From: Fibrobacteria bacterium
Lineage (GTDB): Bacteria > Fibrobacterota > Fibrobacteria > UBA11236
Direction: 5' to 3'
NCBI GenBank assembly: GCA_035275285.1
Contig: DATENA010000271.1
Coordinates: 53,354 to 117,353 of the forward strand
Length of the DNA stretch: 64,000 nucleotides
The position numbers and the translations under genes were made by a program. Below, in pieces: positions 5,515 through 64,000 of the stretch (position 1 is its first letter; each line of letters starts with the position of its first letter). The notes under the pieces were generated by a model that worked only from the letters and a program-made list of their open reading frames with translations, did not search any database and was not told the DNA's origin.

Positions 5515-5651
5515 GCGGGGGCCTGGATTTTATGTGGCAAGGAAACGGCTTCAGCCGGGGAATCGATGCGAAAATAGCAATAATTACTATTTTGGAGACA
5601 TCCCGGAGGCCCGGCCTCCGATGCTTTCGGAAGCGAAGAGGACGGACCACG

Positions 5652-9950: not shown

Positions 9951-9988
9951 CCATGGTTGACTATATTTCCGCTACCGGAAGGAGCGCG

Positions 9989-11306: not shown

Positions 11307-11318
11307 GGCCGCGCCGCT

Positions 11319-15243: not shown

Positions 15244-15249
15244 CAGGAT

Positions 15250-15375
15250 GGAGTGCAAAGTGCAAAAGTCAAAGTGCAAAATTCAAAATCAAGAAACGAA
15301 ACAATACGCATGCACTCTCCCTGGGCGCTCCCCATTTTGCACTTTGACTTTTGCACTTTGACTTTTGAATTTTTC
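15250..15375. repeat. Low-GC inverted-repeat element, copy 1. The arms are built from a tandem CAAAGTGCAAAAGT core; the central spacer is unique
   Basis: Left arm 15250-15293 reads GAGTGCAAAGTGCAAAAGTCAAAGTGCAAAATTCAAAATCAAG. Right arm 15334-15375 reads ATTTTGCACTTTGACTTTTGCACTTTGACTTTTGAATTTTT. The core GTGCAAAAGTCAAAGTGCAAAA is perfectly inverted between arms. It lies between a hypothetical gene's 3' end and the trmFO start, both on the minus strand. Confidence 0.8.
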
Positions 15376-15391
15376 GCAGGGGAACGGCCGG

Positions 15392-15949
15392 CTAGTGGCT
15401 TGATCCCAATCCCTGCATTTCCAGGTTTTCCGAGAAGGCCCGCAAGGCCATCTTCCCGATCTGGACCCGGGTGGCGGGAAGCGAGGTCAGGAAGGCGCAG
15501 TTCTCGATCAATTGCTCCAATTGGGGCGGACCGATCAGGCCCAGGCGGTAGAGCTCCAGCAGATAATCGTAGGCTTCCACGGAGATGAACTCGCGTTCCA
15601 TGGGATGGAGCACGCGGATCTTCACGGGCGATTGCCGGCTTTGCTCCGCCTGGGATGCGGCCCAGGAAACCAGGGCATCCGCCGTGGTCTTGTGCAGTCC
15701 CAAACGGTCCAGGTCCGCCGCCAGGCTGTCCCATAGGGGCGAAGCGGCCACGGCCGGGGATTTCTCCGCGGCGGGCTTGCCGGCCCCGGCCTTCCCGGCG
15801 CCGGGTTTCCCGGCCGCGACCTTGCCGCGCGCGGGCTTGCCCCGGGGCGCGGGGGGGCCGGGAAAACGCTCCCCTTTCCGCTCCGCCTTCATGTGCAGCA
15901 GCAGCGCGTCGAAAATCTTCGACTGCAATTGCGGATTGATATCGATCAT
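15392..15949 (-). CDS. Hypothetical protein with a low-complexity Pro/Ala/Gly/Lys-rich linker
   Basis: 185 aa. An N-terminal helical segment is followed by the repetitive [34 protein letters not shown] and a conserved-looking C-terminal domain. No recognisable motif. Confidence 0.45.
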
Positions 15950-15961
15950 GCCGGCATGCCC

Positions 15962-17644
15962 TCAGTGGCGGAAATGCCGCGTTCCCGTGAAGACCATGGC
16001 CACGCCCAGCCTGTCCGCGGTGGCGATCACCTCCGGATCGCGCAGGGATCCGCCCGGCTGGAGGATATGGCGGATGCCGCCCTGGTGGGCGGCCACCACG
16101 TTGTCGTCGAAAGGGAAGAACGCGTCCGAGGCCATGACGCACTTGGAAAGGGCCGCGTTCACGTAGGCTTCGGCCTCCGCGCCCATGAGGCCGTTGCGCT
16201 CGGCCTGGCGCCCGAGGTTCTCGCGGGCGCGCGGCTGGCACAGCTTGAGATTGGAATCGATGCGGTTGGGCTGGCCCGGGCCCATGCCCACCAGGGTGAA
16301 CCGGCCGGGGGCGTATTCCTGCCCGATCACGATGGCGTTCGACTTGACGTGCTTGCAGGCCTTCCAAGTGAACAAGGCGAGGGCGTTCAGGTTCTCCGGG
16401 AGCTTGGACGCCGTGGGGGATTCCCATTTGCGGTTGAGCTCCACGTCCCGGTCCTGCACCAGCATTCCGCCCAATATGTGCTTGTAGACCTTGCGGTCCG
16501 CGGCCGGGACCAGGGTGCCGATGTCCAGCAGGCGGATGTCCTTGCTCTTCTTCTGCAGGTATTCCAGGGCCTCGGGGGCGAAGCCCGGTGCGATGAGCAA
16601 TTCCACGAAACGGCCCTTGAGCTTCTCGGCCGTGGCCAGGTCCACGGTGCGCGTCACCGCGATCACGGAACCGAACGCCGAGACGGGATCGCCTTCCCAG
16701 GCGGCTTCGAAAGCCTCGGCCAGGGTGGCGCCGGTGGCGTAGCCGCAGGGATTCATGTGCTTGATGATGGAGACGGCAGGGGACTCGCGCAGCTCGCGCG
16801 CCGATTCCAGCGCCGCGTCCGCGTCCACCAGGTTGTTGAAGCTGAGCTCTTTGCCGTGCAATTGCCTGGCCGAGCCGATGTTGGGCTCGCGGCCGGATCG
16901 GGCTTCCTTCTCGAGGAAGAACGTGGCCTTCTGATGGTCGTTCTCGCCGTAGCGCAGCGTCCTGCCTTCGACGAAGGACAGGCGCAGGGAAGGGGATTTC
17001 GCCAGGGTGGCCGACAGGTATTCGTCGATGGCGGAGTCGTAGTCCGCCGTATGGCGGAACACCTTCAGGGCCAAAGCCTGGCGGGTGGCGGGGGAGGTGT
17101 CGCCCTCGCGCTTGAGCTCCTGGACCACCTTGCCGTAATCGGCGGGATCGCAGACCACGGTCACGAAGCGGTGGTTCTTGGCGGAGGAACGCAGCATGGC
17201 GGGGCCGCCGATGTCGATGTTCTCGATGGCCTCTTCCAGCGCCACGTCCGGTTTGGCCACGGTTTCGCGGAAGGGGTAGAGGTTCACGGCCACGATGTCG
17301 ATGGATTCGATGCCGTGCTTGCGCATCTGCTCCCGGTGATCCGCGCTGTCGCGGATCCCGAGCAGGCCCCCGTGGATCTTGGGATGCAGGGTTTTCACCC
17401 GGCCGTCCAGGATTTCCGGCGAACCGGTGTATTCGGATATGGCCACGGCGGGCACGCCCTTTTCCCTCAGGAACTTCAGCGTGCCCCCGGTGCTGAGGAT
17501 GCGGACGTCCATGCCGGCCAGGGCCTGGGCGAACTCCGGCAATCCGGTCTTGTCGGAAACGCTGATCAAGGCGGTTTTCTTGGCGGCTTGTCGCTCGGGA
17601 GTCGCTGATGCAACTCCACGCTCCTCGCTATCAGGGTTGTTCAC
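15962..17644 (-). CDS. purH: Bifunctional AICAR transformylase / IMP cyclohydrolase PurH
   Basis: MGS-like N-terminal domain ([16 protein letters not shown]...GGTL) and the C-terminal AICARFT domain. 560 aa. Confidence 0.92.
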
Positions 17645-18530
17645 GAAATTCCTTTCCGGTCAGGAGCGCATAGGCTTCCAGGTATTTGCGGCGGGTGTTC
17701 TCCACCACCTCCGCGGGCAGCTCGGGACCGGGATAGGTCTTGCCCCAATCGAGCGTGTTGAGATAATCGCGCACGTACTGTTTGTCGAAGCTGTCCTGCT
17801 CGCGCCCTTCCGCATAGCCTGCGGCGGGCCAGAAGCGCGAGGAGTCCGGCGTCAGCACTTCGTCGATGAGGATGGTCTTGCCGTCCACCACCCCGAACTC
17901 GAACTTGGTGTCCGCCAGGATGACCCCTTTTCCCAGGGCATAGGCGCGCGCGCGGGAGTAGATGTCCAGGGTCAGGCCGCGCAGGCGGTCCGCATCGGCC
18001 GGGCCGATCATCTTTTCCATGGCCTTGAAATCGATGTTCTCATCGTGGCCGACGTCGTTCTTGGCGGCGGGGGTGAACAAGGGCGGATCCAGCTTGCCGC
18101 TCAGCTTGAGGCCGGGAGGGAGGGCATGGCCGCACACCGCTCCCGTGGCCTGGTAATCCTTCCAGCCCGACCCCGCCAGGTAGCCGCGCGCCACGCATTC
18201 CACGTCGAAGCGCTTGGCTTTTTTCACCAGCATGAAGCGGCCGCGGAGATAGTCGCGATGGCGATCCAGGGAGGCCGGCAGATCCTTCACGTCCGCGGAC
18301 AGGAAATGGCTGGGCACTCCCAGATGGTTGAACCAGAAAACCGACAGCTGGGTGAGGATCTTGCCTTTGTCCCGGATCGGGGTGGGCAAAACCACGTCGA
18401 AGGCGGAGAGGCGGTCGGTGGCCACCATCAGCAATTTGTCGCCCAAATCATAGACATCCCGCACCTTGCCCCGGGAAAACAGGGGGATTTCGGTAATGGG
18501 CGGAGGGCTCGAGGTGACCGGGTCATGCAT
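17631..18530 (-). CDS. purC: SAICAR synthetase PurC
   Basis: LLMVATDRLSAFD, ADTKFEFG. 299 aa. It overlaps the purH start by 14 nt. Confidence 0.9.
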   Translation of the reverse strand: MHDPVTSSPPPITEIPLFSRGKVRDVYDLGDKLLMVATDRLSAFDVVLPTPIRDKGKILTQLSVFWFNHLGVPSHFLSADVKDLPASLDRHRDYLRGRFMLVKKAKRFDVECVARGYLAGSGWKDYQATGAVCGHALPPGLKLSGKLDPPLFTPAAKNDVGHDENIDFKAMEKMIGPADADRLRGLTLDIYSRARAYALGKGVILADTKFEFGVVDGKTILIDEVLTPDSSRFWPAAGYAEGREQDSFDKQYVRDYLNTLDWGKTYPGPELPAEVVENTRRKYLEAYALLTGKEFREQP

Positions 18531-29624: not shown

Positions 29625-31169
29625 TTGCTGAAGCGTGAGCAATGGATGGATCTGGCGCGGAAACTGGATTGGAACTTTTCCTATGTCGAGGAAAAGGATG
29701 TCTATCCGGAGGAAGCCGCGGGAACCCCCTGGCTCCCCCAGCAGGCCTGGGCCGCTTGGGACGAACCCTATCGCACCTCCTACTCGGAGTACGTGAGGGG
29801 CCAAGCCGCCAAGGAAGCCTCGGTCAAGGCGGTCCGGGAGGCCATCGGCAGGCCGGAAGACTTCGAGCGCCTGCCGCGCCCGTGGCTCAGCGCGCTCAAG
29901 CTCCATGGCGCCACCTTGCCCCTGGCGGAATTCGCGGCCGTGATCGGGAACCTCCGGGCCGGCCGCTTCGCGCGCGCTTCGGCATGGCGCACCACGGCGG
30001 CTTTCGGGGCCCTGGACGAATTCCGCCATACCCAGATCCCTTTGCTGCTCATGCACGGACTGGTGCCATGGGACCGGCAATTCGACTGGACGCACAGGTT
30101 CTTCCATACCGGCAACTGGGTCGCCGTGGCCGGCCGCCATCTCGCGGATGAGCTCCTGCTCTGTTCCAATCCCATCGAATTCGCGGTGGGCACCAACTTC
30201 GTCTTCGAAACCGGCTTCACCAACATGCAATTCATCGGCTTGGGCTCCCTGGCGCGCCGGACCGGGGACCGGATGTTCGAACAGATGGTGAACAGCATCC
30301 AGACCGATGAGGCTCGGCATGCCCAGATCGGCCGGCCGGTGCTGGAAATCCTGAGGAAGCATGATCCGGCGTATGCGCAGCGCCTGGTGGATAAATGGTT
30401 CTGGCGGAGCTGGCATTTCTTCGCCGTGGTCACCGGTTTCGCCATGGATTATCTGACGCCCCTGGAGCACCGGACCGCCTCCTTCAAGGAATTCATGGAA
30501 GAATGGGTGCTGGATCAGTTCCAGCGCTCCCTGGACGAGGCGGGCCTGCGGAAGCCCTGGTATTGGAACGAATTCCTCGCATCCCTCGATCATTACCATC
30601 ACATGGTCTATGCGAGCGCGTACACCTATCGCGCCACCGTCTGGTTCGACATGGCGGTACCCTCGCCGGCCGAGCGGGAATGGCTGGCGGAGAAATACCC
30701 CGCGTCCTGGAGCCAATACGCCCCCATCTGGGATCGCATCGATCAGCGCTGGAAGGAAAGCGGACCGGGGGTGGAATGGCATACCCACGGCGCGACCCCG
30801 GTGGGCTTCTGCGACCTCTGCCAGATGGTGCTGTGCGCGGGCAGCCCGATGGCCAATTCGGCCCGGGTGGTGGGGCACGGAGGCCGGAAATACATCTTCT
30901 GCTCCGATCCTTGCAAGTGGATCTTCGAGGCGGAGCCGGAAAGATACGCTTCCCACAAGGACGTGGTGAAGCGGATCCTCTCCGGCGAGGCCCCGGCCAA
31001 CCTGCTCGAACTCATCAAGCATTTCGGATTGACCGCCGACGAGTGGGGAAAGGACGCGTACCGGGGAGGGTACCCCTGGATGCGCGGGACCGCGGGAAGA
31101 AAGAACGGCGGGGATGGCGACGGGGAGGGACGCTTGAACGGACGTCCCCAGAAGGTCCGGAAGGACTGA
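29625..31169 (+). CDS. tmoA: Soluble diiron monooxygenase hydroxylase alpha subunit (toluene-4-monooxygenase TmoA / alkene monooxygenase-like)
   Basis: Diiron ligand motifs DEFRH and TDEARHAQ, plus FETGFTNMQFIGL. Collinear matches to TmoA include WNFSYV, WDEPYRTSY, MDYLTPLEHRTASFKEFMEEW, KPWYW and the C-terminal KYIFCSDPCKWIFEAEPERY. A TTG at 29625 preceded by AGGAGGA is the likely start; an ATG at 29646 is the alternative. Confidence 0.85.
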   Translation: MLKREQWMDLARKLDWNFSYVEEKDVYPEEAAGTPWLPQQAWAAWDEPYRTSYSEYVRGQAAKEASVKAVREAIGRPEDFERLPRPWLSALKLHGATLPLAEFAAVIGNLRAGRFARASAWRTTAAFGALDEFRHTQIPLLLMHGLVPWDRQFDWTHRFFHTGNWVAVAGRHLADELLLCSNPIEFAVGTNFVFETGFTNMQFIGLGSLARRTGDRMFEQMVNSIQTDEARHAQIGRPVLEILRKHDPAYAQRLVDKWFWRSWHFFAVVTGFAMDYLTPLEHRTASFKEFMEEWVLDQFQRSLDEAGLRKPWYWNEFLASLDHYHHMVYASAYTYRATVWFDMAVPSPAEREWLAEKYPASWSQYAPIWDRIDQRWKESGPGVEWHTHGATPVGFCDLCQMVLCAGSPMANSARVVGHGGRKYIFCSDPCKWIFEAEPERYASHKDVVKRILSGEAPANLLELIKHFGLTADEWGKDAYRGGYPWMRGTAGRKNGGDGDGEGRLNGRPQKVRKD

Positions 31170-31180
31170 AGGACCGGGAG

Positions 31181-31435
31181 ATGCTGGTCCCCCTGTACGG
31201 ATTCATGCGCGGCGACTGCCTGGGACTGATCGTCCTGGTGCACGATACGGATCCGGTGGCCCACATCGCCGAGACCCTGGCCCAGGCCGCGGGCATGCGG
31301 GTGGTCCCGCGGCCGGGAGGCTCCGTGTACGCGGACGGCAAGCGCTTGGATCCGGGGCTCAGCGTGGCCCAGGCGGGACTGACCGCCTTGGACCGGGTGG
31401 ACGTGATCCCGGAGGAGCACGTGTGGCCTGGATGA
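31181..31435 (+). CDS. tmoB: Monooxygenase small subunit, TmoB-like (gamma)
   Basis: 84 aa. IVLVHDTDPVAHIAETLAQAAGMRVVPRPG ... GLTALDRVDVIPEE aligns with the TmoB pattern (VVVDLNDSMDQVAEKVAYHCVNRRVAPREG ... GLNPTEVIDVVFEE). Confidence 0.7.
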   Translation: MLVPLYGFMRGDCLGLIVLVHDTDPVAHIAETLAQAAGMRVVPRPGGSVYADGKRLDPGLSVAQAGLTALDRVDVIPEEHVWPG

Positions 31436-31752
31436 AAGCCGAAGGCATGGGGGATCTGTGGGACGGGGAAATGCGTCCGTGCCTGGTGCTGGGCATGCGC
31501 GTGCTGGTCCTGAAACAGGATGGGGTCGTCCATGCCTATGCGGACGCCTGCGCGCACCTGAAGGTCCCCCTCAGCGAAGGCCGCTTCGAAGGCGGCGTCC
31601 TCACGTGCCGCGCCCACGAATTCCGGTACGATGCCGCCACGGGCGCGGGACTGAACCCCAGGACGGCCAGGCTGGAACCCTATGCGGCGAAACTGGAAGG
31701 AGGCCAGGTGTGGATAGACCTGACCCTGGGAACGCCTCCGGCGCCTCCGTGA
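31432..31752 (+). CDS. tmoC: Rieske [2Fe-2S] ferredoxin component, TmoC-like
   Basis: Rieske CxH...CxxH motifs (CAHLKVPL and CRAHEFRYD). About 106 aa. ATGA overlap with the tmoB stop. Confidence 0.8.
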   Translation: MKAEGMGDLWDGEMRPCLVLGMRVLVLKQDGVVHAYADACAHLKVPLSEGRFEGGVLTCRAHEFRYDAATGAGLNPRTARLEPYAAKLEGGQVWIDLTLGTPPAPP

Positions 31753-32045
31753 CGGCCAAGGAAGGAAGCGGCGCGATCCGGGGACCGGGCCCGGTGCTGA
31801 TCGCCGGGGAAGCCTCCCAGGCGGTGCTGGAGGCGATGAAATCCCTCAACCGCAACCTCTCCGTGCTGGATAGGGGCTCCTATTGGCGCGTATCCTCCGC
31901 TTCCGGCTGCCGGCTCACGCGCGCGGCCGTCGAAAAGCGGCTCGGGAAACCGTTCCTCATGCCGGGCGATCTGGAAGCGCTGATGCCGTCCTTCTCGGGA
32001 CGTTTCCGCGTCACCGAAGAAGAGGCCCGGTGGGAGGAGGGATGA
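31749..32045 (+). CDS. tmoD: Monooxygenase effector/coupling protein, TmoD/MmoB family
   Basis: 98 aa. LTRAAVEKRLGKPFLMPGDLEALMPSFSGRF aligns with the TmoD [30 protein letters not shown]. The GTG start overlaps the tmoC stop in a GTGA. Confidence 0.7.
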   Translation: MTAKEGSGAIRGPGPVLIAGEASQAVLEAMKSLNRNLSVLDRGSYWRVSSASGCRLTRAAVEKRLGKPFLMPGDLEALMPSFSGRFRVTEEEARWEEG

Positions 32046-33019
32046 CGCCGCGCCGGACCTGGTGGAACCTGGAGAGTTCCGCGCGCAAGCCTTCGGACTA
32101 CGAGATCGCCTCCACGGATCTGCTGTACTATCCCAAGCTCGGCTTCGAAGTCAGGACCCCGCTGGAGGAGTGGCACCGCAAATTCCAAGCGGGGTCGCCC
32201 CTGGCTTGCGCCGATTGGGATCGCTTCCGCGATCCCGCCGAGCTGACCTATTCGCGTTACGTAGAAGCGCGCCGGGACAAGGAAATCTACGTGGACGGCC
32301 TCTTCAACGCCGCCGAGGCGACCGGTCACGATCATAAGCTGTCCGGAGAATGGCTGCAGCTGATGGATCGCCTCCTCTGCCCGTTGCGATACCCCTGGCA
32401 CGGGCTGCAGATGGCCTCCTCCTATCTCGGCAGCATGGCCCCGGGCGGGCGCATCGCCATCTGCTTCCTGCTGCAGACCGGCGACGAGATCCGCCGGATC
32501 CAGCGCATCGCCTACCGCATGCGGATGCTGATGGAAACGCGGCCGGGCCTGGGCGCGGAAAGCCGGTATTGCTGGGAATGGGAACCGGCATGGCAACCCC
32601 TGCGGCGCGCCATCGAGCGCCTCCTGGTGACCTACGACTGGGGGGAAGCGTTCGTGGCGCTGAACCTTTCCCTGAAGCCGGCGCTGGACGAAATGTTCCT
32701 GATCCATTTCGCCAGGGCCGCGGCCCGTTCCGGGGACGAGGTGCTGGGAAAGCTGTTCCTCTCCTTCCACGAAGATTCCCGCTGGCAAAGGGAGTGGAGC
32801 GCGGCCCTGGTGCGGATGCTGGTGGCCGGATCCCCCGAGAACGCGAAGTCGCTCCGGGAATGGATCGCCCGCTGGCATCCCATCGCCGAAACGGCCGCCC
32901 TGGCCTTCGCGCCCGCCCTGTGCGCCCCGGGACAGGACGCGGATTTCATCCGCGACGGGATCCGGGGCGCCTTGGGCGTGGCCGGCATGATGCCCAGGGA
33001 GGCGGTCCATGCGGCCTGA
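32042..33019 (+). CDS. tmoE: Monooxygenase hydroxylase beta subunit, TmoE-like
   Basis: 325 aa, all-helical, of typical beta-subunit size and in the position after the effector. The ATG at 32042 overlaps the tmoD stop in an ATGA. It lacks the full diiron ligand set, as expected for a beta subunit. Confidence 0.65.
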   Translation: MTPRRTWWNLESSARKPSDYEIASTDLLYYPKLGFEVRTPLEEWHRKFQAGSPLACADWDRFRDPAELTYSRYVEARRDKEIYVDGLFNAAEATGHDHKLSGEWLQLMDRLLCPLRYPWHGLQMASSYLGSMAPGGRIAICFLLQTGDEIRRIQRIAYRMRMLMETRPGLGAESRYCWEWEPAWQPLRRAIERLLVTYDWGEAFVALNLSLKPALDEMFLIHFARAAARSGDEVLGKLFLSFHEDSRWQREWSAALVRMLVAGSPENAKSLREWIARWHPIAETAALAFAPALCAPGQDADFIRDGIRGALGVAGMMPREAVHAA

Positions 33020-53065: not shown

Positions 53066-53183
53066 ACCGGTCTTGTATAAGACCTACAGTCCAAAGAGCG
53101 GTTGGATCGGAAACGTTGTCACTTCGTCAGGGTGATCCCGTCGGGAGTACGGGCCAGGCCCTGGTATCGCTGCTGCGCCCCTC

Positions 53184-53285
53184 GGAGTCGGGAGTCGGGA
53201 GTTGAAGAAAAGAGAAAGCATGCCGGGCATGCTCCCAGGCCGGTTTTCACGGCCTCTTTTCTTCAACTCCCGACCCCCGACTCCC
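53184..53285. terminator. Very long imperfect hairpin (about 31-bp stem, 39-nt loop with an inner palindrome) between convergent genes
   Basis: Left arm GGAGTCGGGAGTCGGGAGTTGAAGAAAAGAG (53184-53214). Right arm CTCTTTTCTTCAACTCCCGACCCCCGACTCCC (53254-53285). There is one mismatch, and the loop contains GCATGCCGGGCATGC. It lies between the ubiA-family gene (+) and a small outer-membrane-protein (OMP) gene (-). Confidence 0.45.
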
Positions 53286-53349
53286 GACTTGATGCCGCCC
53301 CAAGCTCCAGCTTCTCACTCCCCCAACAAGCTTCCCACATGGCTCTCTT

Positions 53350-55553: not shown

Positions 55554-55582
55554 TTGCCAATAACTTAATGAAGGTATAAATT
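55554..55582 (+). promoter_or_regulatory. Candidate sigma70-type promoter (TTGCCA-17-TAAATT) abutting the der start; possibly a leaderless transcript
   Basis: TTGCCA at 55554-55559, a 17-nt spacer, TAAATT at 55577-55582. The der ATG is at 55590 with no SD in between, in an AT-rich patch within GC-rich DNA. Confidence 0.35.
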
Positions 55583-55589
55583 TTCCGCC

Positions 55590-57239
55590 ATGAATCTCGC
55601 AACCGTCGTTATCGTGGGCCGTCCCAACGTGGGCAAGTCCAGCTTTTTCAACCGCGTCCTGGGCAGAAGGGCGGCCGTCGTCGCCAATCGCGAAGGCGTG
55701 ACCCGCGATCGGCACTACCAAACCGCCGAATGGAACGGGGTGCATTTCCAGATCGTGGATACCGGCGGGTTCCTGTCCAAGGACCTGGATGCTCTCAACG
55801 CCTCCGTGCGGGATCAGATCCTGGTCGCCGTGGAAGAAGCCGATCTGGTCCTCTTCCTGGTGGACGGCCGCGTAGGCATCACGGAAATGGATCTGAATTT
55901 CGCCCGCCTGATCCAGAAGACCGGCCAACCCACCTTGCTGGTGGTGAACAAGGCCGAATCCCGTTCCGTGGCCCTGGAAGCCTCGCAATACTGGTCCCTG
56001 GGCCTGGGCGAACCGCTTCCCATCTCCGCCCTGCAGGGCGACAATGTGGCCGACCTGCTGGACGCGGTGGTGGAACGCCTGCCGAGCAAGCCCCGCCACG
56101 TGGCCAGGGAAGACAAGATCCGGGTCGCCATCCTGGGGCGTCCCAACGCGGGCAAGAGCACCATGGTGAACTCCTTGGTGGGGGAGGAGCGGGTCATCAC
56201 CTCGGAGATCGCCGGCACCACCCGGGACGCCATCGATACGGAGTTCGAATACCAGGGGCACAAGATCGTCCTCACCGATACCGCCGGCCTGCGCCGCAAG
56301 GCGCGGGTCAAGGACGAGGTGGAGTATTTCTCCAACATGCGGGCCCTGGAGGCGATACGGCGCAGCGACGTATGCGTGCTTCTGGTGGACGCCAAACGCG
56401 GCATGGAAATCCAGGACTTCCGCATTTGCACCATGATCCAGGAAATCGGCAAGGGCCTGATCATCGCGCTGAACAAATGGGACATCATGGAGCCGGACAG
56501 CAAGACCTTCGACCACGTGGTCAAGGAACTGCGCACCAAGAACCCCGATCTGGCGGAGTTCCCCTTTCTCTCCACTTCGGCGCTGACGGGCAAGAGGCTG
56601 GTCCGCGTCCTGGACGAGATCGTCAAGGTGAAGGCCAACCTGTCCAGGGTGCTGGGCCGCGACAACGTCATCAAGTTCTTCGAAGAAGCCATCGTAAAGC
56701 ATCCCCATCCCGCCACGTCCCTGGGTCCCGTCATCCTCACCCGCTGCTGCCAGGTGCTGGTCAATCCGCCCGCCCTGGCCTTCGAAGTGAGCCACCCGGA
56801 GCGGGTCACCACCAGCTATACCCGCTATCTGCGCCGCCAGGCCTACGATTTCTTCCAATTGGAAGGCGCGCCGCTCCGCATCTGGTTCCGGAGCCGCTTC
56901 AAGCTGCGCACCGATGAGGACCTGTTGTCCTGGATCCATTGGGGCGACGTGCCCGCCGAACTCAAGGAAGAATGGTTGGGCGAAGAGGGAGACCACGAGG
57001 AAGCGGACCTGGACGAGGGGGATGAATTGGAAGCCGAGGAAGCCGTGGCGGAAACCGGCGCATCCGTGAAAGCCGATGGCGATACCCCGGCCAAACCGGA
57101 TCCGAAGCCGCGGAGTCCGAAGGCGCAAGGTCCGAAAAAGCCGGAACCGGAAGCGGAGGCGGAAAAAAACGGGGACGACGACGAGGAGGATTTCTGGGAA
57201 GATGAGCTCCCCGAGAACGAAATCGGGGACGCCAGGTAA
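55590..57239 (+). CDS. der: Ribosome-biogenesis GTPase Der (EngA) with a roughly 100-aa acidic/Lys-Pro-rich C-terminal extension
   Basis: Two tandem GTPase domains (GRPNVGKSSFFN ... DTGG; GRPNAGKSTMVN ... DTAG) and a KH-like domain. The C-terminal tail EEGDHEEADLDEGDELEAEEA ... KPDPKPRSPKAQGPKKPEPEAEAEKNGDDDEEDFWEDEL is atypical. Confidence 0.9.
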   Translation: MNLATVVIVGRPNVGKSSFFNRVLGRRAAVVANREGVTRDRHYQTAEWNGVHFQIVDTGGFLSKDLDALNASVRDQILVAVEEADLVLFLVDGRVGITEMDLNFARLIQKTGQPTLLVVNKAESRSVALEASQYWSLGLGEPLPISALQGDNVADLLDAVVERLPSKPRHVAREDKIRVAILGRPNAGKSTMVNSLVGEERVITSEIAGTTRDAIDTEFEYQGHKIVLTDTAGLRRKARVKDEVEYFSNMRALEAIRRSDVCVLLVDAKRGMEIQDFRICTMIQEIGKGLIIALNKWDIMEPDSKTFDHVVKELRTKNPDLAEFPFLSTSALTGKRLVRVLDEIVKVKANLSRVLGRDNVIKFFEEAIVKHPHPATSLGPVILTRCCQVLVNPPALAFEVSHPERVTTSYTRYLRRQAYDFFQLEGAPLRIWFRSRFKLRTDEDLLSWIHWGDVPAELKEEWLGEEGDHEEADLDEGDELEAEEAVAETGASVKADGDTPAKPDPKPRSPKAQGPKKPEPEAEAEKNGDDDEEDFWEDELPENEIGDAR

Positions 57240-57865
57240 TGGACGGGATGCCGGGGTTCCGGATAGGCGCGGCCTTGGCGGCGGCCTATTTCCTGGGTTC
57301 GCTGCCTTTCGCGGCCTGGGTCGCCCGCCTGCACGGAGTGGACATCACCAAGGTGGGCAGCGGCAATCCCGGCATGACGAACGTCTGGCGCACCCTGGGC
57401 TGGAAACCCGCCCTGCCCGTGGCCCTGCTCGATGCGGGCAAAGGCTATCTGGCCGCCTGGCTGGCCATGTACCTCACCGGTTCCCTGAACTGGGCCCTGG
57501 CTGCGGGCCTGGTCGCCGTCCTGGGCCATTCCTTCACTTGTTTCGCCGCCTTCAAGGGCGGCAAGGGCGTGCTCACCGGGTTCGGCGTGTTCCTGTACTT
57601 CACGCCCCTGAGCGCTTTGGCGGGGCTGGCCGCCTGGGCCGCCGTGGTGGCCAAGACCCGTTACGTGAGCTTGGGATCGATCATCGCCTCCGTGGTGATG
57701 CCCATGGGGATCTTCCTGGAAGCCCTTTACCGCCGCAATGGCGAATTGTATCCCGCATTGACGGTGGCCATCCTCGTGGGAGTCTTCGTACTTTACCGTC
57801 ACCGCGCCAACATCGCCCGGCTGACGCAAGGGACCGAAAACAAGATAGGGAGCAAGGCCGGATGA
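57239..57865 (+). CDS. plsY: Glycerol-3-phosphate acyltransferase PlsY
   Basis: [12 protein letters not shown] signature, [15 protein letters not shown], and 5 TM helices. The der-plsY arrangement is common. Confidence 0.9.
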
Positions 57866-58347
57866 CCAAAGCGAACTTGAAAAGGCTCGAAGAAGGCAAG
57901 CTTTACTACTCCATTTCCGAAGTCTGCTCCATGACCGGATTGGAACAGCACGTGCTCCGCTATTGGGAATCCGAGTTCCCCCAATTGCGGCCCAAGAAGA
58001 ACCGCTCCGGGAACCGCGCGTACCGCGCGAAGGAGATCAAGATCATCCGCTACATCAAATACCTCCTGTACGAGGAGATGTACACCATTCCCGGCGCCAA
58101 GAAGAAAATGGCCGACGCCGACATGTCGGACCTGGACGGGCAATTGACCTTGCTGCGCGTTCCGCCCACGCCGCAACCGGTCCCGGCCCCGCAGGCGGTT
58201 TCCGGGCCCGCTCCCGCCCCGGAAGATTCCGCGCCCGTCAATGGGCGCGCCGCCGCGGACAGGCTGAGGGAGGAATTGAAGCGCGTCAAGCAGGAGTTGC
58301 AATCCCTGCTCACGGCCCTGGCGACGTCGGGGAGGGAATCCCCCTGA
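57862..58347 (+). CDS. MerR-family transcriptional regulator
   Basis: N-terminal HTH (YYSISEVCSMTGLEQHVLRYWESEF) and a C-terminal coiled coil. The start overlaps the plsY stop in an ATGA. Confidence 0.7.
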   Translation: MTKANLKRLEEGKLYYSISEVCSMTGLEQHVLRYWESEFPQLRPKKNRSGNRAYRAKEIKIIRYIKYLLYEEMYTIPGAKKKMADADMSDLDGQLTLLRVPPTPQPVPAPQAVSGPAPAPEDSAPVNGRAAADRLREELKRVKQELQSLLTALATSGRESP

Positions 58348-59705
58348 ACCTGCTTCCCGCTTCGCACCTGGTATCCACCCATATCCAGGGTCTGGGCTAC
58401 GCCCTGTTCCACGTCCGCGACAACCGGCTCGAATTCCGCCGCCGTTCCGCGGATGAATTCGCCGTGGACGGCGCCTGGATCAACAAGACCGGCCTGGTCG
58501 CGGAAGGCCTGGCCCGCAAACCTTACATCCATCTCGACATCCGCACGCCTTTCGGCGAAACCGTGGGCGAGAGCCAGGTGCAGGAAGCCCTGGCGGAAAG
58601 CCTTGGCCCGCGCAAGGACAAATACCGCCTCGGGGGCTGGCACATCCAGTTCGTCGAAGACACCAATCTGGGCTCCAACCATCGCGTCTTCGCGGATTTG
58701 ATCGAGACCACCGCCTCCTCCGGGGGGCTTGCGGGCATGGACGCGGGCCTGTCCCTGGAACTGGCCATCGAAGCCTTGGGCGAGCTGGTCGCGGCGGAGA
58801 AGGGCGAGCAGAACTTCCAGCTTCTCTACGGGGGGGCGCAATTCTGCTACTCCCTGCTCTACCTCAACGGGTCGCCGTTCCACGTCCTGCGCGTGGACGA
58901 AGGCGCCGGAGACAAGGCCGCCGCGCGCCTGCGCCGGCACCGGGAATTCGCCCCCGGGAACCGGGATTCGGCCCAGACCAACGGCCGTTCAGGCCTGAAG
59001 ACTTTCCTTCCGGAAGGCGATCCGCTCCGGGAAACGGCCACGGTCCGGGATCTGCGCCCTGACGCGATCGGATTGGGGGCCGCGGACGGCTCCGCCGAAA
59101 CCGGCAATGCCTGGCCGCTGCATCTGGGCCTGGCCCATGCGGCGCGGCAAAGGGATTTCTCCCCGCACAACCGCGTCGCCGCGGACGCCCGGCGGCGCAA
59201 CGAAGGGATCCGCACCCGTTTCCGGTTCTTCCTGGCGATGGGGGCCGCCGCCGTCCTATGCGCCCTGGCCGCGGCCGTTTTCGCCATCGCCATCCACCGT
59301 TCCCAATCCGAGTTGCGCACCCTGAAAGAGAAGGCTTCGGCCTACCAGGCCCAGGTGGATTCCATCCGCGCCTTGCGCAAGGAACGGGCCCGCCTCGAAG
59401 CCGCCGTCGGGGATCTCCAGCCCTTGTGGCATGGAGCCATGGACTGGAATTCCGTGCTGGGATCCATCGCTTCCGCCTTGCCCAAAGAGGCGGGCATGGA
59501 CGGCTTGTCCGTTTCCCGGCAGGCGGACGGCAGCCTGGAGCTTTCCTTCCGCGCCTGGGTGCGGGATTGGAACCAGGTGCAGGGGATCCAGAAAAAGCTT
59601 TCCGCCTCGCGCCGGTTTTCCGGCGTCACGCTTTCGGAACAGCGCAAAGACATGCAGACCGGGGTCGTCGTCTTCCACGTCACCGGCAAGTTGGGGAGGG
59701 ACTGA
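58344..59705 (+). CDS. GspL-like / PilM-PilN fusion-like assembly protein (cytoplasmic domain, single TM helix, periplasmic coiled coil); start codon unresolved
   Basis: A roughly 290-aa cytoplasmic domain, one TM helix (FFLAMGAAAVLCALAAAVFAIAI), then a PilN/GspL-like periplasmic coiled coil (LRTLKEKASAYQAQVDSIRALRKERARLEAA). The frame is open from upstream of the merR stop, but there is no in-frame ATG/GTG/TTG before 58480; the first GTG falls at FAVDG. Confidence 0.5.
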   Translation: MNLLPASHLVSTHIQGLGYALFHVRDNRLEFRRRSADEFAVDGAWINKTGLVAEGLARKPYIHLDIRTPFGETVGESQVQEALAESLGPRKDKYRLGGWHIQFVEDTNLGSNHRVFADLIETTASSGGLAGMDAGLSLELAIEALGELVAAEKGEQNFQLLYGGAQFCYSLLYLNGSPFHVLRVDEGAGDKAAARLRRHREFAPGNRDSAQTNGRSGLKTFLPEGDPLRETATVRDLRPDAIGLGAADGSAETGNAWPLHLGLAHAARQRDFSPHNRVAADARRRNEGIRTRFRFFLAMGAAAVLCALAAAVFAIAIHRSQSELRTLKEKASAYQAQVDSIRALRKERARLEAAVGDLQPLWHGAMDWNSVLGSIASALPKEAGMDGLSVSRQADGSLELSFRAWVRDWNQVQGIQKKLSASRRFSGVTLSEQRKDMQTGVVVFHVTGKLGRD

Positions 59706-60271
59706 TGGAACACGGCCTGCCCACCCGCATCTGGGAGGATCGCTGGCGCATCCTCGCCTGGGTGCTTCCGGCCTGCCTGCTGGTGCTGTTCGCGGACCGG
59801 GTGGCCTTGCCCTTGGCGGTGCGGCTCCGGGACTCCCGCTCCCAACTGGCTTCGTTGCGGGAAAACACCTATGAGCCTGCCTGGCTCGACTCGACGCGGG
59901 ACGCGCTGCGGAAGGACGTGGAGGCTCTGCGGGCCTTCCAGGTTTCCCGCGAAGGCGCCCTCAACCGGGACAGCAGCATCCAGGCCACCGTGGACCGCGT
60001 GCGACGCCTGGCCCAGGGTTCCGGAATGGAAGTGGTGAAGACCACGCCCATCCTGGCCAAAGCCGATTCCCTCCGGTTGCTCAAGGTCCGGATCGAAGGA
60101 TTCTCCCGCTATGCGGGCCTGATGGAGCTTTTCCGCGTCCTCAAGGACGGCCATCCCGATCTCTTTCCCGAGGAAATGCTGATCCGCCAGGGCGGCGATC
60201 GCGCCGACGGACGGCTGGAAGGGCAATTGGTCATCCACGTCTACGATCGCAGGAAGGACGGCGCCCCATGA
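59704..60271 (+). CDS. GspM / PilO-like inner-membrane pilus or secretion assembly protein
   Basis: ATGA overlap with the upstream stop. N-terminal TM helix (WRILAWVLPACLLVLFA) and a periplasmic domain with an N-terminal coiled coil. 189 aa. Confidence 0.55.
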
Positions 60272-60729
60272 AGGAAAGGCTCTGGGATTGGTGGCCGGCC
60301 TTGCCGGCCTGCCTGATCCTCTACCTGGGCGGGGCTTCTTTCCTGGAGAAATATCCCCAGGCCACCGAGCGCCGCGCGGATCGCTTCGCCGGCGCGGGCG
60401 GCCCCGATTCCCTGCTGGCCTTCGTCCGCAAGGGAACCGATCCGGCCGCGTCCCGTGATTCCGCCGCCGCGGACAATCCCTTCCGGCCCATCCGGGCGCC
60501 CCTGTCCGAGTCCCGGGGCCAGGCCGTCAAGGCCGAACCCCCGCCCAGGCGTTACGTGCTGAAAGGCACCGTCGGGACCAACGTGGCCACCATCGCCAAC
60601 AATTCCGGATTGAAGCAGATCGTAAAGGTAGGGGACAGCATCGATTCCGCCGAAGTGGTCTCCATCGAGACCAACAAGGTCGTTCTCAGGGATCGCGGCG
60701 GCAAGTTCGAACTCATTTTCCAGAAGTGA
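60268..60729 (+). CDS. PilP / GspC-like periplasmic protein
   Basis: N-terminal TM helix and a C-terminal beta domain (RYVLKGTVGTNVATIANNSGLKQIVKVGDSIDSAEVVSIETNKVVLRDRGGKFELIF), matching the PilP/GspC HR-domain pattern. ATGA overlap. Confidence 0.55.
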   Translation: MKERLWDWWPALPACLILYLGGASFLEKYPQATERRADRFAGAGGPDSLLAFVRKGTDPAASRDSAAADNPFRPIRAPLSESRGQAVKAEPPPRRYVLKGTVGTNVATIANNSGLKQIVKVGDSIDSAEVVSIETNKVVLRDRGGKFELIFQK

Positions 60730-62126
60730 TGGGACGGATGCGGGTGCGCGCGCGGGGGGAAAGGGGCGCGGCCCTGCTCACCGTGCTCACCGTATTGGCG
60801 GTTCTCGGCATCGCCGTTTCCATCCTCATCGATCGCACCCGGGGCGACATCAAGCCCTGGGCCCGGGAAATGGAGACCACCCAGGCGGTGTACGCGGCCG
60901 AATCCGGCATCGCCTTCCAATTGTACCTGGAGCGCTTCTCCGATTCCGCGGAACCGTCGTTCGGAAGCAAGGCGGCGGATAGCGGGGCGGATCCGTTCCT
61001 GCGCCCCGCCGCTCCCACGGACACCTTCGCATACCGCCTGGACACCTCCCTGGGAGTGCCGGAAGTCCGGGTGGACCGCACGCACGCCTTCCTGGACATC
61101 ACGTCCAAGGCCGTGTACCGCGGCACGGAAGCCATCGTCTTCGCCCGTTTCGGCAAAGCGCTGGACGACAGCATTTTCGGCCCGGCCCTGACCATGGAGA
61201 ACAACGAACCCCTGGAGCCTTTCCCGCCCGATCGCATATTCGGCGCCGTCAGGTTGAGGACCCCTTCCGAAAACATCCCCAGCGTTCCCTGGCCCCAAGG
61301 GTTTTCCATGGCCGCCTACACGGCCGAATTCACGGACAAGAAATACTACGCCCTGGAATCCCTGCTGCAGAAGAAGCTGGGGGAACAGGGAGGGCAGAGC
61401 GGCAACGGCAACTATTCGCCTTCCGACCCTCCGGACTTCCGGAAATCGGAAGACATCTTCTTCCCCCTGGGCAGCGCGGAACTGATCAACGATGGCGACC
61501 GGCCCTGGGTCATCAAAGGGCCCGGCCGCATCTTCTGCGAAGGGGCGATCCGCGTCAAGGGACTGATCCGCCTGGAAAACGTCCAGCTCCTCTCCGCCAA
61601 GGAAATCACCTTCGAGGACAGCGTCACCGGGGACGGGATTTCCGTCTTCGCGCGCAAAAGCGTCTTCATCAACGACCGTTGCAAACTGGGCATCGAGGCG
61701 TTGGCGGGCAAGGATATCATTCTCCGGGACAAGGCCCAGACCACCCTGGGTTCGGTGCTCCTGTCCGTGGGAGGCAAGAACGCGGCCAAGGGGCCGGACT
61801 CCCTGAACGCCATCCGCATCGTAAACCAGGCGGTGGCGCGGGGATTCCTGATCGCCGGGGGCGCGAACGGGCGCATCGCCCTGGCCACGCCGGAGAACGT
61901 GGTGGAAGGGGTGGTCATGGCCGCTTCGGTCTGGCTGGCCGGGGAAGTGCGGGGTCCGGTCCTGACCGGCAAGCTCCTGTGCGAAGGCACCAATACCCAT
62001 AATTGCCTGGGCACGGGGAAAATCGATCGCAGCCGCCTCCCCGCCAATTTCGTGCAGCCCCTGCAGCTGGGTTCGCAGGACCGCCGCCAGTACACTTTCA
62101 AGCTGCTGGAATGGAAGCGGTCATGA
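60726..62126 (+). CDS. GspK-like minor pseudopilin (large)
   Basis: N-terminus RGERGAALLTVLTVLAVLGIAVSILI resembles the GspK pseudopilin-like helix (GxALLxVLxxxALL). 466 aa with a large periplasmic body. GTG/ATG start overlaps the upstream stop. Confidence 0.5.
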   Translation: MMGRMRVRARGERGAALLTVLTVLAVLGIAVSILIDRTRGDIKPWAREMETTQAVYAAESGIAFQLYLERFSDSAEPSFGSKAADSGADPFLRPAAPTDTFAYRLDTSLGVPEVRVDRTHAFLDITSKAVYRGTEAIVFARFGKALDDSIFGPALTMENNEPLEPFPPDRIFGAVRLRTPSENIPSVPWPQGFSMAAYTAEFTDKKYYALESLLQKKLGEQGGQSGNGNYSPSDPPDFRKSEDIFFPLGSAELINDGDRPWVIKGPGRIFCEGAIRVKGLIRLENVQLLSAKEITFEDSVTGDGISVFARKSVFINDRCKLGIEALAGKDIILRDKAQTTLGSVLLSVGGKNAAKGPDSLNAIRIVNQAVARGFLIAGGANGRIALATPENVVEGVVMAASVWLAGEVRGPVLTGKLLCEGTNTHNCLGTGKIDRSRLPANFVQPLQLGSQDRRQYTFKLLEWKRS

Positions 62127-62722
62127 GCGCTTCGCGAATGACCGCCGCGTTCCTGAGCGCCTCGCGAATGACCGCCTCGGTCACGGCGCCTGCGGGCCTT
62201 AGGCGCGAACGGGGCTTCACGGTGGTGGAAATCGTCATGGCCCTGACCGTCCTGTCCGCCGGATCCGCCGTCCTCTGGTACGGCTTGCGCTCCTCGGCGA
62301 AAATGGACCGGCTGAACCGGTTGCACCATGCCGCCGCCCTGGTGGCGCGTTCGGACCTGGAGTCCCTCCGCAGCGTTCCCAAGGAAGACATCCACGACAC
62401 CCTGTACCTGTCCTCCGGAGGCAGCGGGGAATCCCTGCTGGTGGTGCGCCGCGTGATGGACAGCGCCCGCATCGTGAACACCCTGGAAGAGGTGGTGCTG
62501 GACGACAAGCTGGCTCCCAAGGAGGCTAAAAAGCCCCTGGAAGTGCGGGTGAAGGTCTATCGCCTCCCATTGCGCGAAGAGGGCGAGGCCCCGGACCCGT
62601 CCATGCTCAGGGATCCGGAGGACGATCGGGACGAAGCGCCCCCGGACGAGGACGGAGGGGACGGAAAGCCGCGCAACCTGGCCACTTTCGTCCTCAAGCT
62701 CCCGGAGTACAAATGGTACTGA
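62123..62722 (+). CDS. Pseudopilin with a type IV prepilin-like N-terminus
   Basis: GFTVVEIVMALTVLSAGSAVL follows a short basic leader (class III signal). The 5' end has a 30-nt tandem duplication (SASRMTAAFL / SASRMTASVT). ATGA overlap. Confidence 0.6.
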   Translation: MSASRMTAAFLSASRMTASVTAPAGLRRERGFTVVEIVMALTVLSAGSAVLWYGLRSSAKMDRLNRLHHAAALVARSDLESLRSVPKEDIHDTLYLSSGGSGESLLVVRRVMDSARIVNTLEEVVLDDKLAPKEAKKPLEVRVKVYRLPLREEGEAPDPSMLRDPEDDRDEAPPDEDGGDGKPRNLATFVLKLPEYKWY

Positions 62723-63390
62723 AACGGGGGAGGCGCGCCCCCCGCGCACGCGGCCCCGGGGGTAGCCCGGGTGTTACCTTGATCGAACTCTTGATCGCCA
62801 TCTCCCTGTCCGCCATGATCGTCGGCATGGCCATGGCCCTGTTCAAGGACGCGGGGACCGCCGCGCGGCTGGGGCGGAACCGCCGCGACGCCGCCTTCCA
62901 GGCCCAGGCCATGTTCGTCTCCCTGAGCAACAACCTCATGGCCGGGCGCGGCATCTTGCGCCTGGGACCCGGGCGCCTGGACGTCCTGAACGCGCGCAAC
63001 CGCAGGGTGGAATATGCCTGGGAGGACTCCACTTTGACCGTGAACGGCAAGCCCTGGAATTTCCGTCTGGCTTCCCTGGCGGTGGAACCGGAGGGTCCCA
63101 TGCGGCCAGATTGGAAGGGGTTTGCCGGAGAGTCGCCCTGGGACCTGGACAGCCTGGACGGAAACCGGGACGGCGCCATCGATTTCGAGGAACTGGACCG
63201 GGACCGCAGCGGCCAATTGGAACCGGAGGAGTGCCGTTTCATCGCCCGCATCCGGATCACCCTGATCACGGTGAATCGAGGCGTCACGGCGACGCAGACC
63301 TGCGTGGTCCACCCTCGCAACCGCGTTCCCGCGGCGGCCGGAGAAGAGGCCGAAGAGGTCCTGGAGTCCGGAGGGATTCCCGAACCCTAG
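62713..63390 (+). CDS. Pseudopilin with paired EF-hand-like calcium-binding loops
   Basis: Prepilin motif PGVTLIELLIAISLSAMIVGMA. The C-terminal region has two consecutive 12-residue loops, DGNRDGAIDFEE and DRDRSGQLEPEE, both matching the DxNxDGxIxxxE EF-hand/dockerin-like consensus. Confidence 0.6.
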   Translation: MVLKRGRRAPRARGPGGSPGVTLIELLIAISLSAMIVGMAMALFKDAGTAARLGRNRRDAAFQAQAMFVSLSNNLMAGRGILRLGPGRLDVLNARNRRVEYAWEDSTLTVNGKPWNFRLASLAVEPEGPMRPDWKGFAGESPWDLDSLDGNRDGAIDFEELDRDRSGQLEPEECRFIARIRITLITVNRGVTATQTCVVHPRNRVPAAAGEEAEEVLESGGIPEP

Positions 63391-63549
63391 CGCCGTCCCG
63401 CCGTTTCCCGGCGTAACCATCGGCTGAACCCTGCCTTGAAATGCCCGGAACGGGGTTCATCTGTCCGATTTTTGTTATTTTCCGGGGGCTTTCAAAGTCC
63501 GGCCTGCGCCCCGCGTTCTCCGATGCGCTGCGACCCTGGAAGGAAAGGA

Positions 63550-64000
63550 TTGTCCGCATTGGATGAATTGGCTCTCAACCCGGCCTTGCTCGACGAAGTG
63601 GGACGGGATATCTGCATCCGCTGCCGGACCTATCCCGTGGCGTCCGCCGGCAACGTATTGTTCTTCGCGGCCCAGAACGTGAACGATGAGCTGCTGCGGG
63701 AAGCGCTGCAATTGCGCTCCGGCAAGGACGTGGAATTCCGCAAAGCGGACGGCCCGACCCTGGAATACCAGATCAAACGGATCAGCGGCAAGGCGGGGGC
63801 CCTGGAAGAAGGCGGCATCCTCTCGGATCTGATCAAATCCGAGGTGTCCATCCAGGAAGGTTCCTCCCTGGAGGAAATCAAGAAGAAGAGCCAGAGCGAA
63901 CCCGTCATCAAGCTGGTCAACAACCTGGTGAACCAGGCCATCCTGGAAATCGCCACGGACATCCATATCGAACCGGGCGAGAACCTGGTGAAGGTCCGCT
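63550..64000 (+). CDS. Type II secretion / type IV pilus assembly ATPase (GspE/PilB family), N-terminal part; 3' end outside the window
   Basis: TTG at 63550 (or 63559), with GGAAGGAAAGGA immediately upstream. The translation contains EPVIKLVNNLVNQAILEIATDIHIEPGENLVKVR, the conserved T2SSE N-domain block (PVVKLVN...A...ASDIHIEP). The frame is open to the window end. Confidence 0.7.
   Translation, partial: MSALDELALNPALLDEVGRDICIRCRTYPVASAGNVLFFAAQNVNDELLREALQLRSGKDVEFRKADGPTLEYQIKRISGKAGALEEGGILSDLIKSEVSIQEGSSLEEIKKKSQSEPVIKLVNNLVNQAILEIATDIHIEPGENLVKVR

Follow-up and report, generated by a model that had tools for sequence, protein, structure and literature searches.

What kind of machine do the genes at the downstream end of this stretch of DNA encode, and how much of it do they encode? 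The stretch, 64,000 nucleotides of a Fibrobacteria contig (hereafter the window), ends in seven co-directional genes on the + strand at 58344-64000, which the initial annotation had read as a non-canonical type II secretion or type IV pilus-like module and all of which were recovered in our analysis. Together with an eighth gene beyond the window end they belong to a known machine class and not to a new category. Judged from sequence comparison and analogy, they probably encode an envelope machine of the type IV filament class with a composition like that of a type II secretion system (T2SS), whose platform protein (GspF/PilC, F), major pseudopilin (GspG, G) and prepilin peptidase (O) would be supplied in trans, and we lean towards a secretion-type role for the filament over surface display. 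The genes within the window are as follows.

58344-59705, + strand: L-like gene, GspL-type, 453 amino acids (aa)
59705-60271, + strand: M-like gene, bitopic protein of GspM/PilO type, 188 aa
60268-60729, + strand: C-like gene, GspC-HR/PilP-type, 153 aa
60729-62126, + strand: K-like gene, large pilin in the GspK position, 465 aa
62138-62722, + strand: P1, minor prepilin with the motif G|FTVVE, 194 aa
62713-63390, + strand: P2, minor prepilin with the motif G|VTLIE, 225 aa
63559-64000 and past the window end, + strand: E, GspE/PilB-class ATPase, TTG start, N-terminal 147 codons within the window

These genes had been described as overlapping, which is correct for most junctions (1 nt at L/M and C/K, 4 nt at M/C, 10 nt at P1/P2) and incorrect for K/P1, with an 11-nt gap, and P2/E, where a 168-nt gap forms the sole real spacer of the run. 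The window belongs to a soil MAG (NCBI locus tags VJ385_18260 and VJ385_18275, on a 171,655-bp contig). A public ENA contig, ERZ27257057:k141_1024522, matches the window at 100% identity along 13,733 bases and extends beyond its end; this identity, together with the same gene order in loci of related metagenome-assembled genomes (MAGs), excludes a chance pattern of open reading frames (ORFs). On this contig the E gene ends 1,043 bases past the window end, giving a protein of 494 aa, and its stop is overlapped by the start of the eighth gene:

14773-17205 of ERZ27257057:k141_1024522, beyond the window: D, secretin, 810 aa

The secretin reported as absent is therefore present, and its absence was an artefact of the window edge. 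The same downstream extension, which had been proposed as a check, yielded neither a GspF/PilC gene nor a major pilin, and the reported lack of GspF/PilC from the cluster holds in every locus read.

The module was followed through 18 loci, comprising 16 from GTDB species representatives (all Fibrobacteria/Fibrobacterota MAGs, save two with no phylum label or a mislabel), L024 on a 3.75-Mb contig (ERZ25039538:contig_2699) and the permuted locus L029 (GCA_050293925.1). At each of them ~±10 kb of DNA was read, and the related DNA read amounts to ~450 kb. A 713-kb contig, ERZ25039476:contig_7418, carries the module too. Several of the GTDB contigs are short fragments, and order was judged over the part that each covers. 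On that basis 17 of the 18 loci have the window order, and all 16 GTDB loci read PHP(-), der, plsY, merR, L, M, C, K, P1, P2, E, D, sprT-like, trmB(-), with amino-acid identities to the window genes of 31-97%. Identity of E across these 16 loci is 84-97%, except in the divergent L020 (70%), and that of L is 39-79%; L024 retains the order with an E 72% identical. L029, whose E is 56% identical, is arranged E-D-L-M-C-K-P1-P2 and lacks der-plsY-merR; tblastn established the homology of its L, K, P1 and P2, and profile comparison (hhalign probability 95-96%) that of its M and C. The gene set common to both arrangements defines the conserved unit as the eight genes E, D, L, M, C, K, P1 and P2, a module conserved in uncultured soil Fibrobacteria. 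The order with assembly platform first and ATPase last, regarded in the initial annotation as a distinguishing trait, is accordingly only one of at least two. A further Fibrobacterota lineage (L028) has the E-D pair alone, immediately after the genes of two giant proteins, a PA14/Ig-repeat protein of 1,506 aa and an M4-peptidase/ASH-domain protein of 1,500 aa (L028 287-13650), and these neighbours are possible substrates or cargo.

Such conservation bears on the idea that the locus is a decaying, non-functional remnant of an ancestral T2SS or type IV pilus (T4P) locus from which F, G and O were lost, an explanation we find hardly credible. The core genes absent from the cluster and the six of eight proteins that fall under family thresholds would fit a relic, but the ORFs are intact in short-read assemblies, with apparent frameshifts in one locus only (L023) that may be assembly errors. 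Ribosome-binding sites (RBSs) and the overlap structure are conserved as well, and L, K and P2 have invariant motifs and confident folds. The intact gene set and the high identity of E instead argue for a functional machine under purifying selection. Two further ATPases, P0191 and P0198 (54-56% identical), were considered as module members and rejected as an orphan paralogue beside a rhomboid and a 449-aa protein. This orphan GspE-like ATPase occurs in L025-L027, from other Fibrobacteria genomes, at 7773-11500, always preceded by the rhomboid protease and the 449-aa protein; the latter has no Pfam match, and no secretin or pilins lie nearby in these three loci, which thus represent an uncharacterized ATPase module distinct from the present one.

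AlphaFold2 models were built for L and K. The model of L (predicted local distance difference test score, pLDDT, 87.5) consists of an N-terminal actin-like cytoplasmic domain of PilM/FtsA fold, a long transmembrane (TM)/coiled helix (residues 280-356) and a C-terminal, periplasmic ferredoxin-like domain homologous to PilN. Pfam and NCBIfam scans gave no GspL sequence match. In a profile search of 1.84 billion representative proteins L has just 32 relatives at E <= 1e-30, beyond which the search reaches, through the C-terminal half of L only, ~180-aa proteins; all five of those scanned were bona fide PF05137 PilN. A PilM fold, one TM segment and a PilN homologue are, as far as model and sequence tell, the normal architecture of a GspL. 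The structure prediction proposed for L thus bore out the PilM-fold/PilN-like layout, and it removed the fused L-type protein from the list of departures from canonical systems.

The same matches bear on a second explanation, in which the genes encode a surface type IVa-like pilus, with L-M-C acting as PilMN-PilO-PilP, D as PilQ and E as PilB, and with K-P1-P2 capping an extracellular pilus whose solenoid tip binds polysaccharide fibres, in line with proposals on Fibrobacter adhesion, or DNA, in the manner of Thermus ComZ. We regard this account as possible, if somewhat doubtful. It is favoured by the cytoplasmic domain of L, which in Foldseek comparison matches PilM at 8.5e-9 and the PulL cytoplasmic domain at 8e-4 (with FtsA also matched), and by the periplasmic half reaching PilN proteins. 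The model of L also matches PilO, at 1.4e-3. A joined PilM-PilN protein has a precedent in MshI of the MSH pilus, one polypeptide with PilM-like and PilN-like parts that precedes PilO- and PilP-like genes, and a PilM_2 plus PilN fusion protein (P0348) turned up among the scanned proteins. Unlike the MSH system, however, the module has no MshM/N, its secretin has a best match that is not of MshL type, and no sequence match of L to MshI was obtained.

For M and C, the profiles point in the other direction. M matches NCBIfam GspM_XpsM over its full length (E = 2.3e-12, 47 bits versus a cut-off of 60), as do 15 of 15 members of its family, and Pfam T2SSM_b at 0.012, and profile scans returned no PilO match, so that M resembles an XpsM-type GspM in sequence. 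In C, a TM segment at the N-terminus is joined through a linker to a conserved beta domain at the C-terminus, and there is no PDZ domain. It matches Pfam T2SSC at 2e-4, and in its family NCBIfam GspC_delta, a profile of the HR-type domain only, is matched by 14 of 14 members at ~1e-5 and the PilP family by 11 of 14; C thus resembles the HR domain of GspC and PilP. An LPAC reading, with C as a lipoprotein, was rejected because the Cys is buried within the hydrophobic TM segment. When PDB chains were searched with profiles of L, K, M, P1 and P2, no significant match emerged other than to the N-terminal helix of pilins, to EF-hand loops and to PilN (E ~0.2); for these proteins fold comparison alone was informative.

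Full-length E matches PF00437 at 3.8e-130 and contains a Walker A motif and a CxxC...CxxC tetracysteine motif in its translation. It scores 520.5 bits against TIGR02533 GspE (cut-off 630) and 500.6 bits against TIGR02538 PilB (cut-off 675.7), and ties in PDB comparison at 385 bits each with Vibrio GspE and Geobacter PilB. With 494 aa and a single N-terminal domain E is GspE-sized, whereas the PilB-named proteins in its match list are mostly 540-580 aa, which counts against the pilus. Its TTG start has a conserved RBS. A c-di-GMP-binding MshEN domain was considered for E and rejected, the match being weak and the N-terminal sequence containing no RLG-type motif.

D matches Pfam Secretin (PF00263, 8.5e-41) and passes Pfam for STN also, and has a slight margin only between T2SS and T4P secretins in PDB comparison. 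In NCBIfam it scores 204 bits as PilQ (TIGR02515, cut-off 284) and 143 bits as GspD (TIGR02517, cut-off 351), with HofQ matching too, and it has a single N1-type domain, all of which would suit the pilus; that a Pfam scan found no AMIN domains in it would not. Its N-domain architecture is unusual, with a Pro-rich N-terminal linker and three tandem STN/N0-type repeats (~residues 131-205, 218-290 and 315-388), and a Pro/Ala/Lys-rich tail of ~100 aa ends the protein. Over the whole module only E and D pass Pfam curated thresholds (T2SSE, Secretin, STN), both remaining under every NCBIfam cut-off, while L, M, C, K, P1 and P2 fall under all cut-offs or are matched solely through the N-terminal prepilin helix. 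The profile classification proposed earlier, carried out here with Pfam and NCBIfam, therefore places two proteins in families in Pfam only and leaves the remaining six outside them, in keeping with the original description of a module of the type II secretion/type IV pilus class that is far from canonical.

K, P1 and P2 are prepilin-type proteins, three genes where the GspH-I-J-K set has four. The N-terminus of K is prepilin-like and of GspK type, without Glu5 (motif G|AALLTVL), and 20 of 26 family members match GspK, over ~54 N-terminal residues only. In the model of K (pLDDT 82) a pilin helix and a small sheet are followed by a right-handed beta-solenoid (~residues 228-434) and a terminal strand. 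Structure prediction, which had been suggested for K as well, thus revealed a pilin framework with an inserted ice-binding-type beta-solenoid similar to ComZ: the top three Foldseek matches are chains of Thermus ComZ, followed by ice-binding proteins, although the match, made with a predicted model, is marginal (E = 3e-4, TM-score ~0.16), and a K homologue matches Pfam Ice_binding weakly (0.006). ComZ of Thermus thermophilus (PDB 6qvi) is a GspK-like pilin with an ice-binding-type solenoid at the tip of the competence pilus (PMC6561018). K and ComZ share the GspK-like framework with a large solenoid, which in both is placed before the last C-terminal strand as judged by secondary-structure order, and a gene beside small minor pilins, for which a tip position is argued in the ComZ-PilA2 case (PMC6561018). 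They differ in genomic context and host phylum, and no sequence similarity between them was detectable.

P1 and P2 carry canonical class III signal motifs with Glu5, and their family-specific profile matches are to the N-methylation helix only. P1 matches PF07963 and TIGR02532 at threshold and has a conserved prepilin N-terminus in its family alignment. P2 matches N_methyl and EF-hand_5/EF-hand_1 in Pfam and contains a tandem pair of canonical EF-hand Ca2+ loops, DGNRDGAIDFEE and DRDRSGQLEPEE, whose Ca-ligand positions are invariant in 12 aligned species; its PDB-profile matches are weak, to pilins and lanmodulin/EF-hand proteins. Sites of this kind are known in T4P tip proteins such as PilY1, which lends the pilus some further weight, as does the resemblance in fold of the K solenoid to adhesins and cellulose-binding tapirins (PMC6561018). 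On the other side, the N-terminus of K agrees with M and C in matching T2SS profiles best. A similar C-terminal motif was seen in P1 (LKLPEYKWY, 62696-62719) and K (FKLLEWKRS, 62100-62123) and is conserved across the P1 family; it may represent a common last beta-strand for assembly of a tip complex.

No GspF/PilC, no GspG-type or other extra prepilin and no prepilin peptidase was found in the cluster at any locus read, and the same three parts are absent from the Pfam-labelled 64-kb window, in which ~15.5-19.7 kb and 39.6-44.2 kb are without Pfam labels. A motif scan of all fetched loci disclosed no further prepilin motif in the ~450 kb, and the missing parts were not found near four more distant ATPase relatives either. 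Nor was any PilT, PilC or PilA/major pilin present in cis in the loci read, a further point against the pilus. A third explanation takes these absences at face value: the eight genes would be the whole system, with K-P1-P2 as its sole pilins forming a short plug or piston with the solenoid in the secretin, and no dedicated GspF-type platform or major pilin involved. That exactly these eight genes stay together in two arrangements and genomic contexts speaks for such a self-sufficient minimal machine, as does the single set of prepilin motifs in the DNA read. We nevertheless consider it very unlikely. No characterized type IV filament machine is known to do without a polytopic platform protein or without a prepilin peptidase, T2SS and T4P genes are often split between loci, and reading extended over ±10 kb around each locus; moreover, the canonical cleavage motifs retained in P1 and P2 imply a peptidase encoded at another place in the genome. 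A bolder form, in which the eight genes are the complete apparatus and the K-P1-P2 cap is a Ca2+-switched solenoid plug or probe that the ATPase drives into and out of the three-N0 secretin, also strikes us as improbable; in a weaker version the solenoid tip may be the long-sought pilus adhesin tethering Fibrobacterota to polysaccharide fibres.

Returning to the T2SS-like machine with parts in trans, the assigned homologies and established T2SS/T4P biology suggest how it might work. The GspE-class ATPase, as a hexamer, would dock on the PilM-fold cytoplasmic domain of L, which would pair with the GspM-type protein in the inner membrane and periplasm, and the short GspC/PilP-type protein would connect the platform so formed with the secretin by way of the latter's N0-type domains. 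K, P1 and P2 would form a priming tip complex equivalent to GspK-I-J, with the K beta-solenoid at the very tip and P2 adding a Ca2+-dependent element. GspF/PilC, the major (pseudo)pilin and the prepilin peptidase would come from elsewhere in the genome, and the filament would either drive folded exoproteins through the secretin or show its solenoid tip at the cell surface.

In favour of this reading, T2SS profiles win for M, C and the K N-terminus, and marginally for E. Several observations weigh against it. L is closer to PilM and PilN than to GspL, and the T2SS-family matches of L, M, C and K are all under curated cut-offs; D scores higher as PilQ than as GspD (204 versus 143 bits) and has one Secretin_N domain instead of the N1-N3 set of GspD; in structure K comes closest to the tip pilin of a competence pilus; and F, G and O, assumed to be present in trans, were not found in the ~450 kb of related DNA read. 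By sequence it is a mosaic, in which the profiles of the inner-membrane proteins and K lean to T2SS, and the secretin and the domains of L lean to T4P.

The nearest known systems are the Xps/delta-type T2SS, the diverged T2SS of Bacteroidota, the type IVa PilMNOPQ-PilB set and the ComZ tip pilin. The module is like the Xps/deltaproteobacterial T2SS (XpsE-N,D of Xanthomonas) in its L of GspL architecture, its XpsM-homologous M, its short GspC/XpsN-like C with an HR domain of the GspC_delta family and no PDZ, its GspK-type N-terminus without Glu5, its GspE-sized tetracysteine ATPase and its possession of a secretin. It is unlike that system in that the Fibrobacterota cluster is without F, G, H and O and all matches fall under equivalog cut-offs, that its secretin is PilQ-like with three STN/N0 repeats and one N1 instead of N0-N3, that a beta-solenoid stands in place of the GspK alpha-domain, and that the order in the window is L-M-C-K-P-P-E-D. 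Type IVa PilM-PilN-PilO-PilP-PilQ and PilB correspond to it in fold and presumed role, L answering to PilM plus PilN, M to PilO, C to PilP, and D and E to PilQ and PilB, whereas PilM and PilN are fused in L, M matches GspM and not PilO profiles, AMIN domains are lacking, and PilC, PilT and PilA are not nearby.

Fibrobacterota and Bacteroidota both belong to the FCB superphylum. In the Bacteroidota T2SS of Cytophaga hutchinsonii (CHU_3191-3201) candidates for L, M and C and minor pseudopilins without a Pfam domain have been described, and in Bacteroidota clusters the gene order is non-proteobacterial while F, G and the prepilin peptidase are kept beside E-D (PMC5553014). The Fibrobacterota module agrees with these, compared by description only, in the adjacency of E and D, the diverged L/M/C and minor pseudopilins and a non-proteobacterial order, and differs in having no F, G or peptidase in the cluster.

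As the initial annotation stated, the module directly follows der, plsY and merR, which head the run leading into it; a further gene follows D.

55590-57239, + strand: der (EngA GTPase), 549 aa, identified by Pfam domains
57239-57865, + strand: plsY (glycerol-3-phosphate acyltransferase), PF02660, overlapping the der stop and the merR start
57862-58347, + strand: MerR-family helix-turn-helix protein, 161 aa, PF13411, E = 8.6e-19
63471-63483, + strand: promoter-like motif TTTG(C/T)TATTTTCC in the P2-E spacer, upstream of E
17202-18212 of ERZ27257057:k141_1024522 (L001), 3.2 kb past the window end: SprT-like gene, 336 aa, HExxH motif 'YHECLH', overlapping the secretin stop

The three upstream genes overlap each other and the L gene in the same style as the module junctions. 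The TGA stop of merR (58345-58347) and the CTG that opens L (58344-58346) share a 4-nt overlap (CTGA). The start of L was correctly given as 58344, although the codon there is CTG. Homologues of L align from 58344 with M/V/L starts, and CTG with a GGGAG Shine-Dalgarno sequence 8-11 nt upstream is found in ten loci (the window, L007-L012, L016, L018 and L019), other lineages having ATG, GTG or TTG at this position or within two codons. In the model the 40 residues after the CTG fold confidently, residues 8-35 as confident beta-strands, and the public annotation, which starts L 40 codons short at GTG 58464, trims this N-terminus. The conserved CTG and Shine-Dalgarno sequence, the aligned starts and the folded N-terminus together make it most likely that L initiates at the conserved CTG, coupled to translation of merR.

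The merR gene adjoins L, usually overlapping it, in every same-order locus covering the junction, and lies inside the operon, not divergent from it. The initial annotation had offered MerR as a regulator of the module; since der-plsY is linked to the module as tightly as merR, and merR is absent from the permuted L029, such regulation is best called plausible. The position of der is kept in every same-order locus reaching it (15 of the 16 GTDB loci and L024; L017 and L022 do not reach it), and plsY synteny is conserved across same-order loci. A sigma-70-like site lies just upstream of der and no terminator-like hairpin was found between genes of the der-to-module run; with the overlapping junctions, the run reads as one operon.

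The motif upstream of E recurs in the P2-E spacer, of 54 to 215 nt, in at least 10 loci and has the look of an internal promoter that would serve E-D-sprT; comparable elements precede ligA (5569-5581, - strand) and der (55570-55590). An element of the TTTG(C/T)TATTTTCC type may be the -10/-7 element of the clade's housekeeping promoter. In the window-order clade the module would form part of a der-plsY-merR-...-sprT operon that has a second promoter within it, ahead of E-D. The SprT-like gene is kept in every same-order locus reaching that far and is absent from L029, and is a possible ninth, accessory gene of the operon; past it lie trmB, on the opposite strand, and then gatB.

Some further observations concern the surrounding DNA. 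An Rfam scan of 20 kb around the module showed no riboswitch or known RNA, only chance microRNA (miRNA)-model matches to a long hairpin. This hairpin of ~110 nt (~53167-53302; L001 2900-3035; -77.7 kcal/mol, z = -9.1), spuriously matched on both strands, separates the convergent pair formed by ubiA and a small outer-membrane-like gene, and probably serves as a terminator in both directions. Der/EngA has a Lys/Glu/Asp-rich C-terminal extension of ~90 residues, apparently variable, as most relatives align only to ~residue 465-490 by tblastn. The region 29625-33019 holds a gene cluster for a soluble di-iron monooxygenase (Phenol_Hydrox alpha, TmoB, Rieske ferredoxin, MmoB/DmpM and Phenol_Hydrox beta), with PAS histidine kinases on its flanks; an enzyme of the toluene/phenol/alkene monooxygenase kind would not be expected in a Fibrobacteria MAG.

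We found no published description of the eight-gene Fibrobacterota module in the literature; work on Fibrobacter succinogenes has invoked pilins and type II secretion generically for cellulose adhesion and enzyme export (PMC4668043). It is set apart by its pilins with a solenoid (K) or EF-hands (P2), the tandem trio of N0-type domains in the secretin, F, G and O consistently not in cis, and a housekeeping-operon setting in which L has a conserved CTG start. Most of its parts are missed or shortened by current profile libraries and annotations. T2SSs and type IV pili are understood almost wholly from Proteobacteria and a few other phyla, and the module provides a concrete conserved gene set for Fibrobacterota, where this machinery was undefined. 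With its PilM-PilN fusion, XpsM-like M, PilQ-like secretin and solenoid and EF-hand pilins, it blurs the boundary between T2SS and T4P, and if the platform protein, major pilin and peptidase were truly absent genome-wide, it would challenge the minimal parts list assumed for the superfamily.

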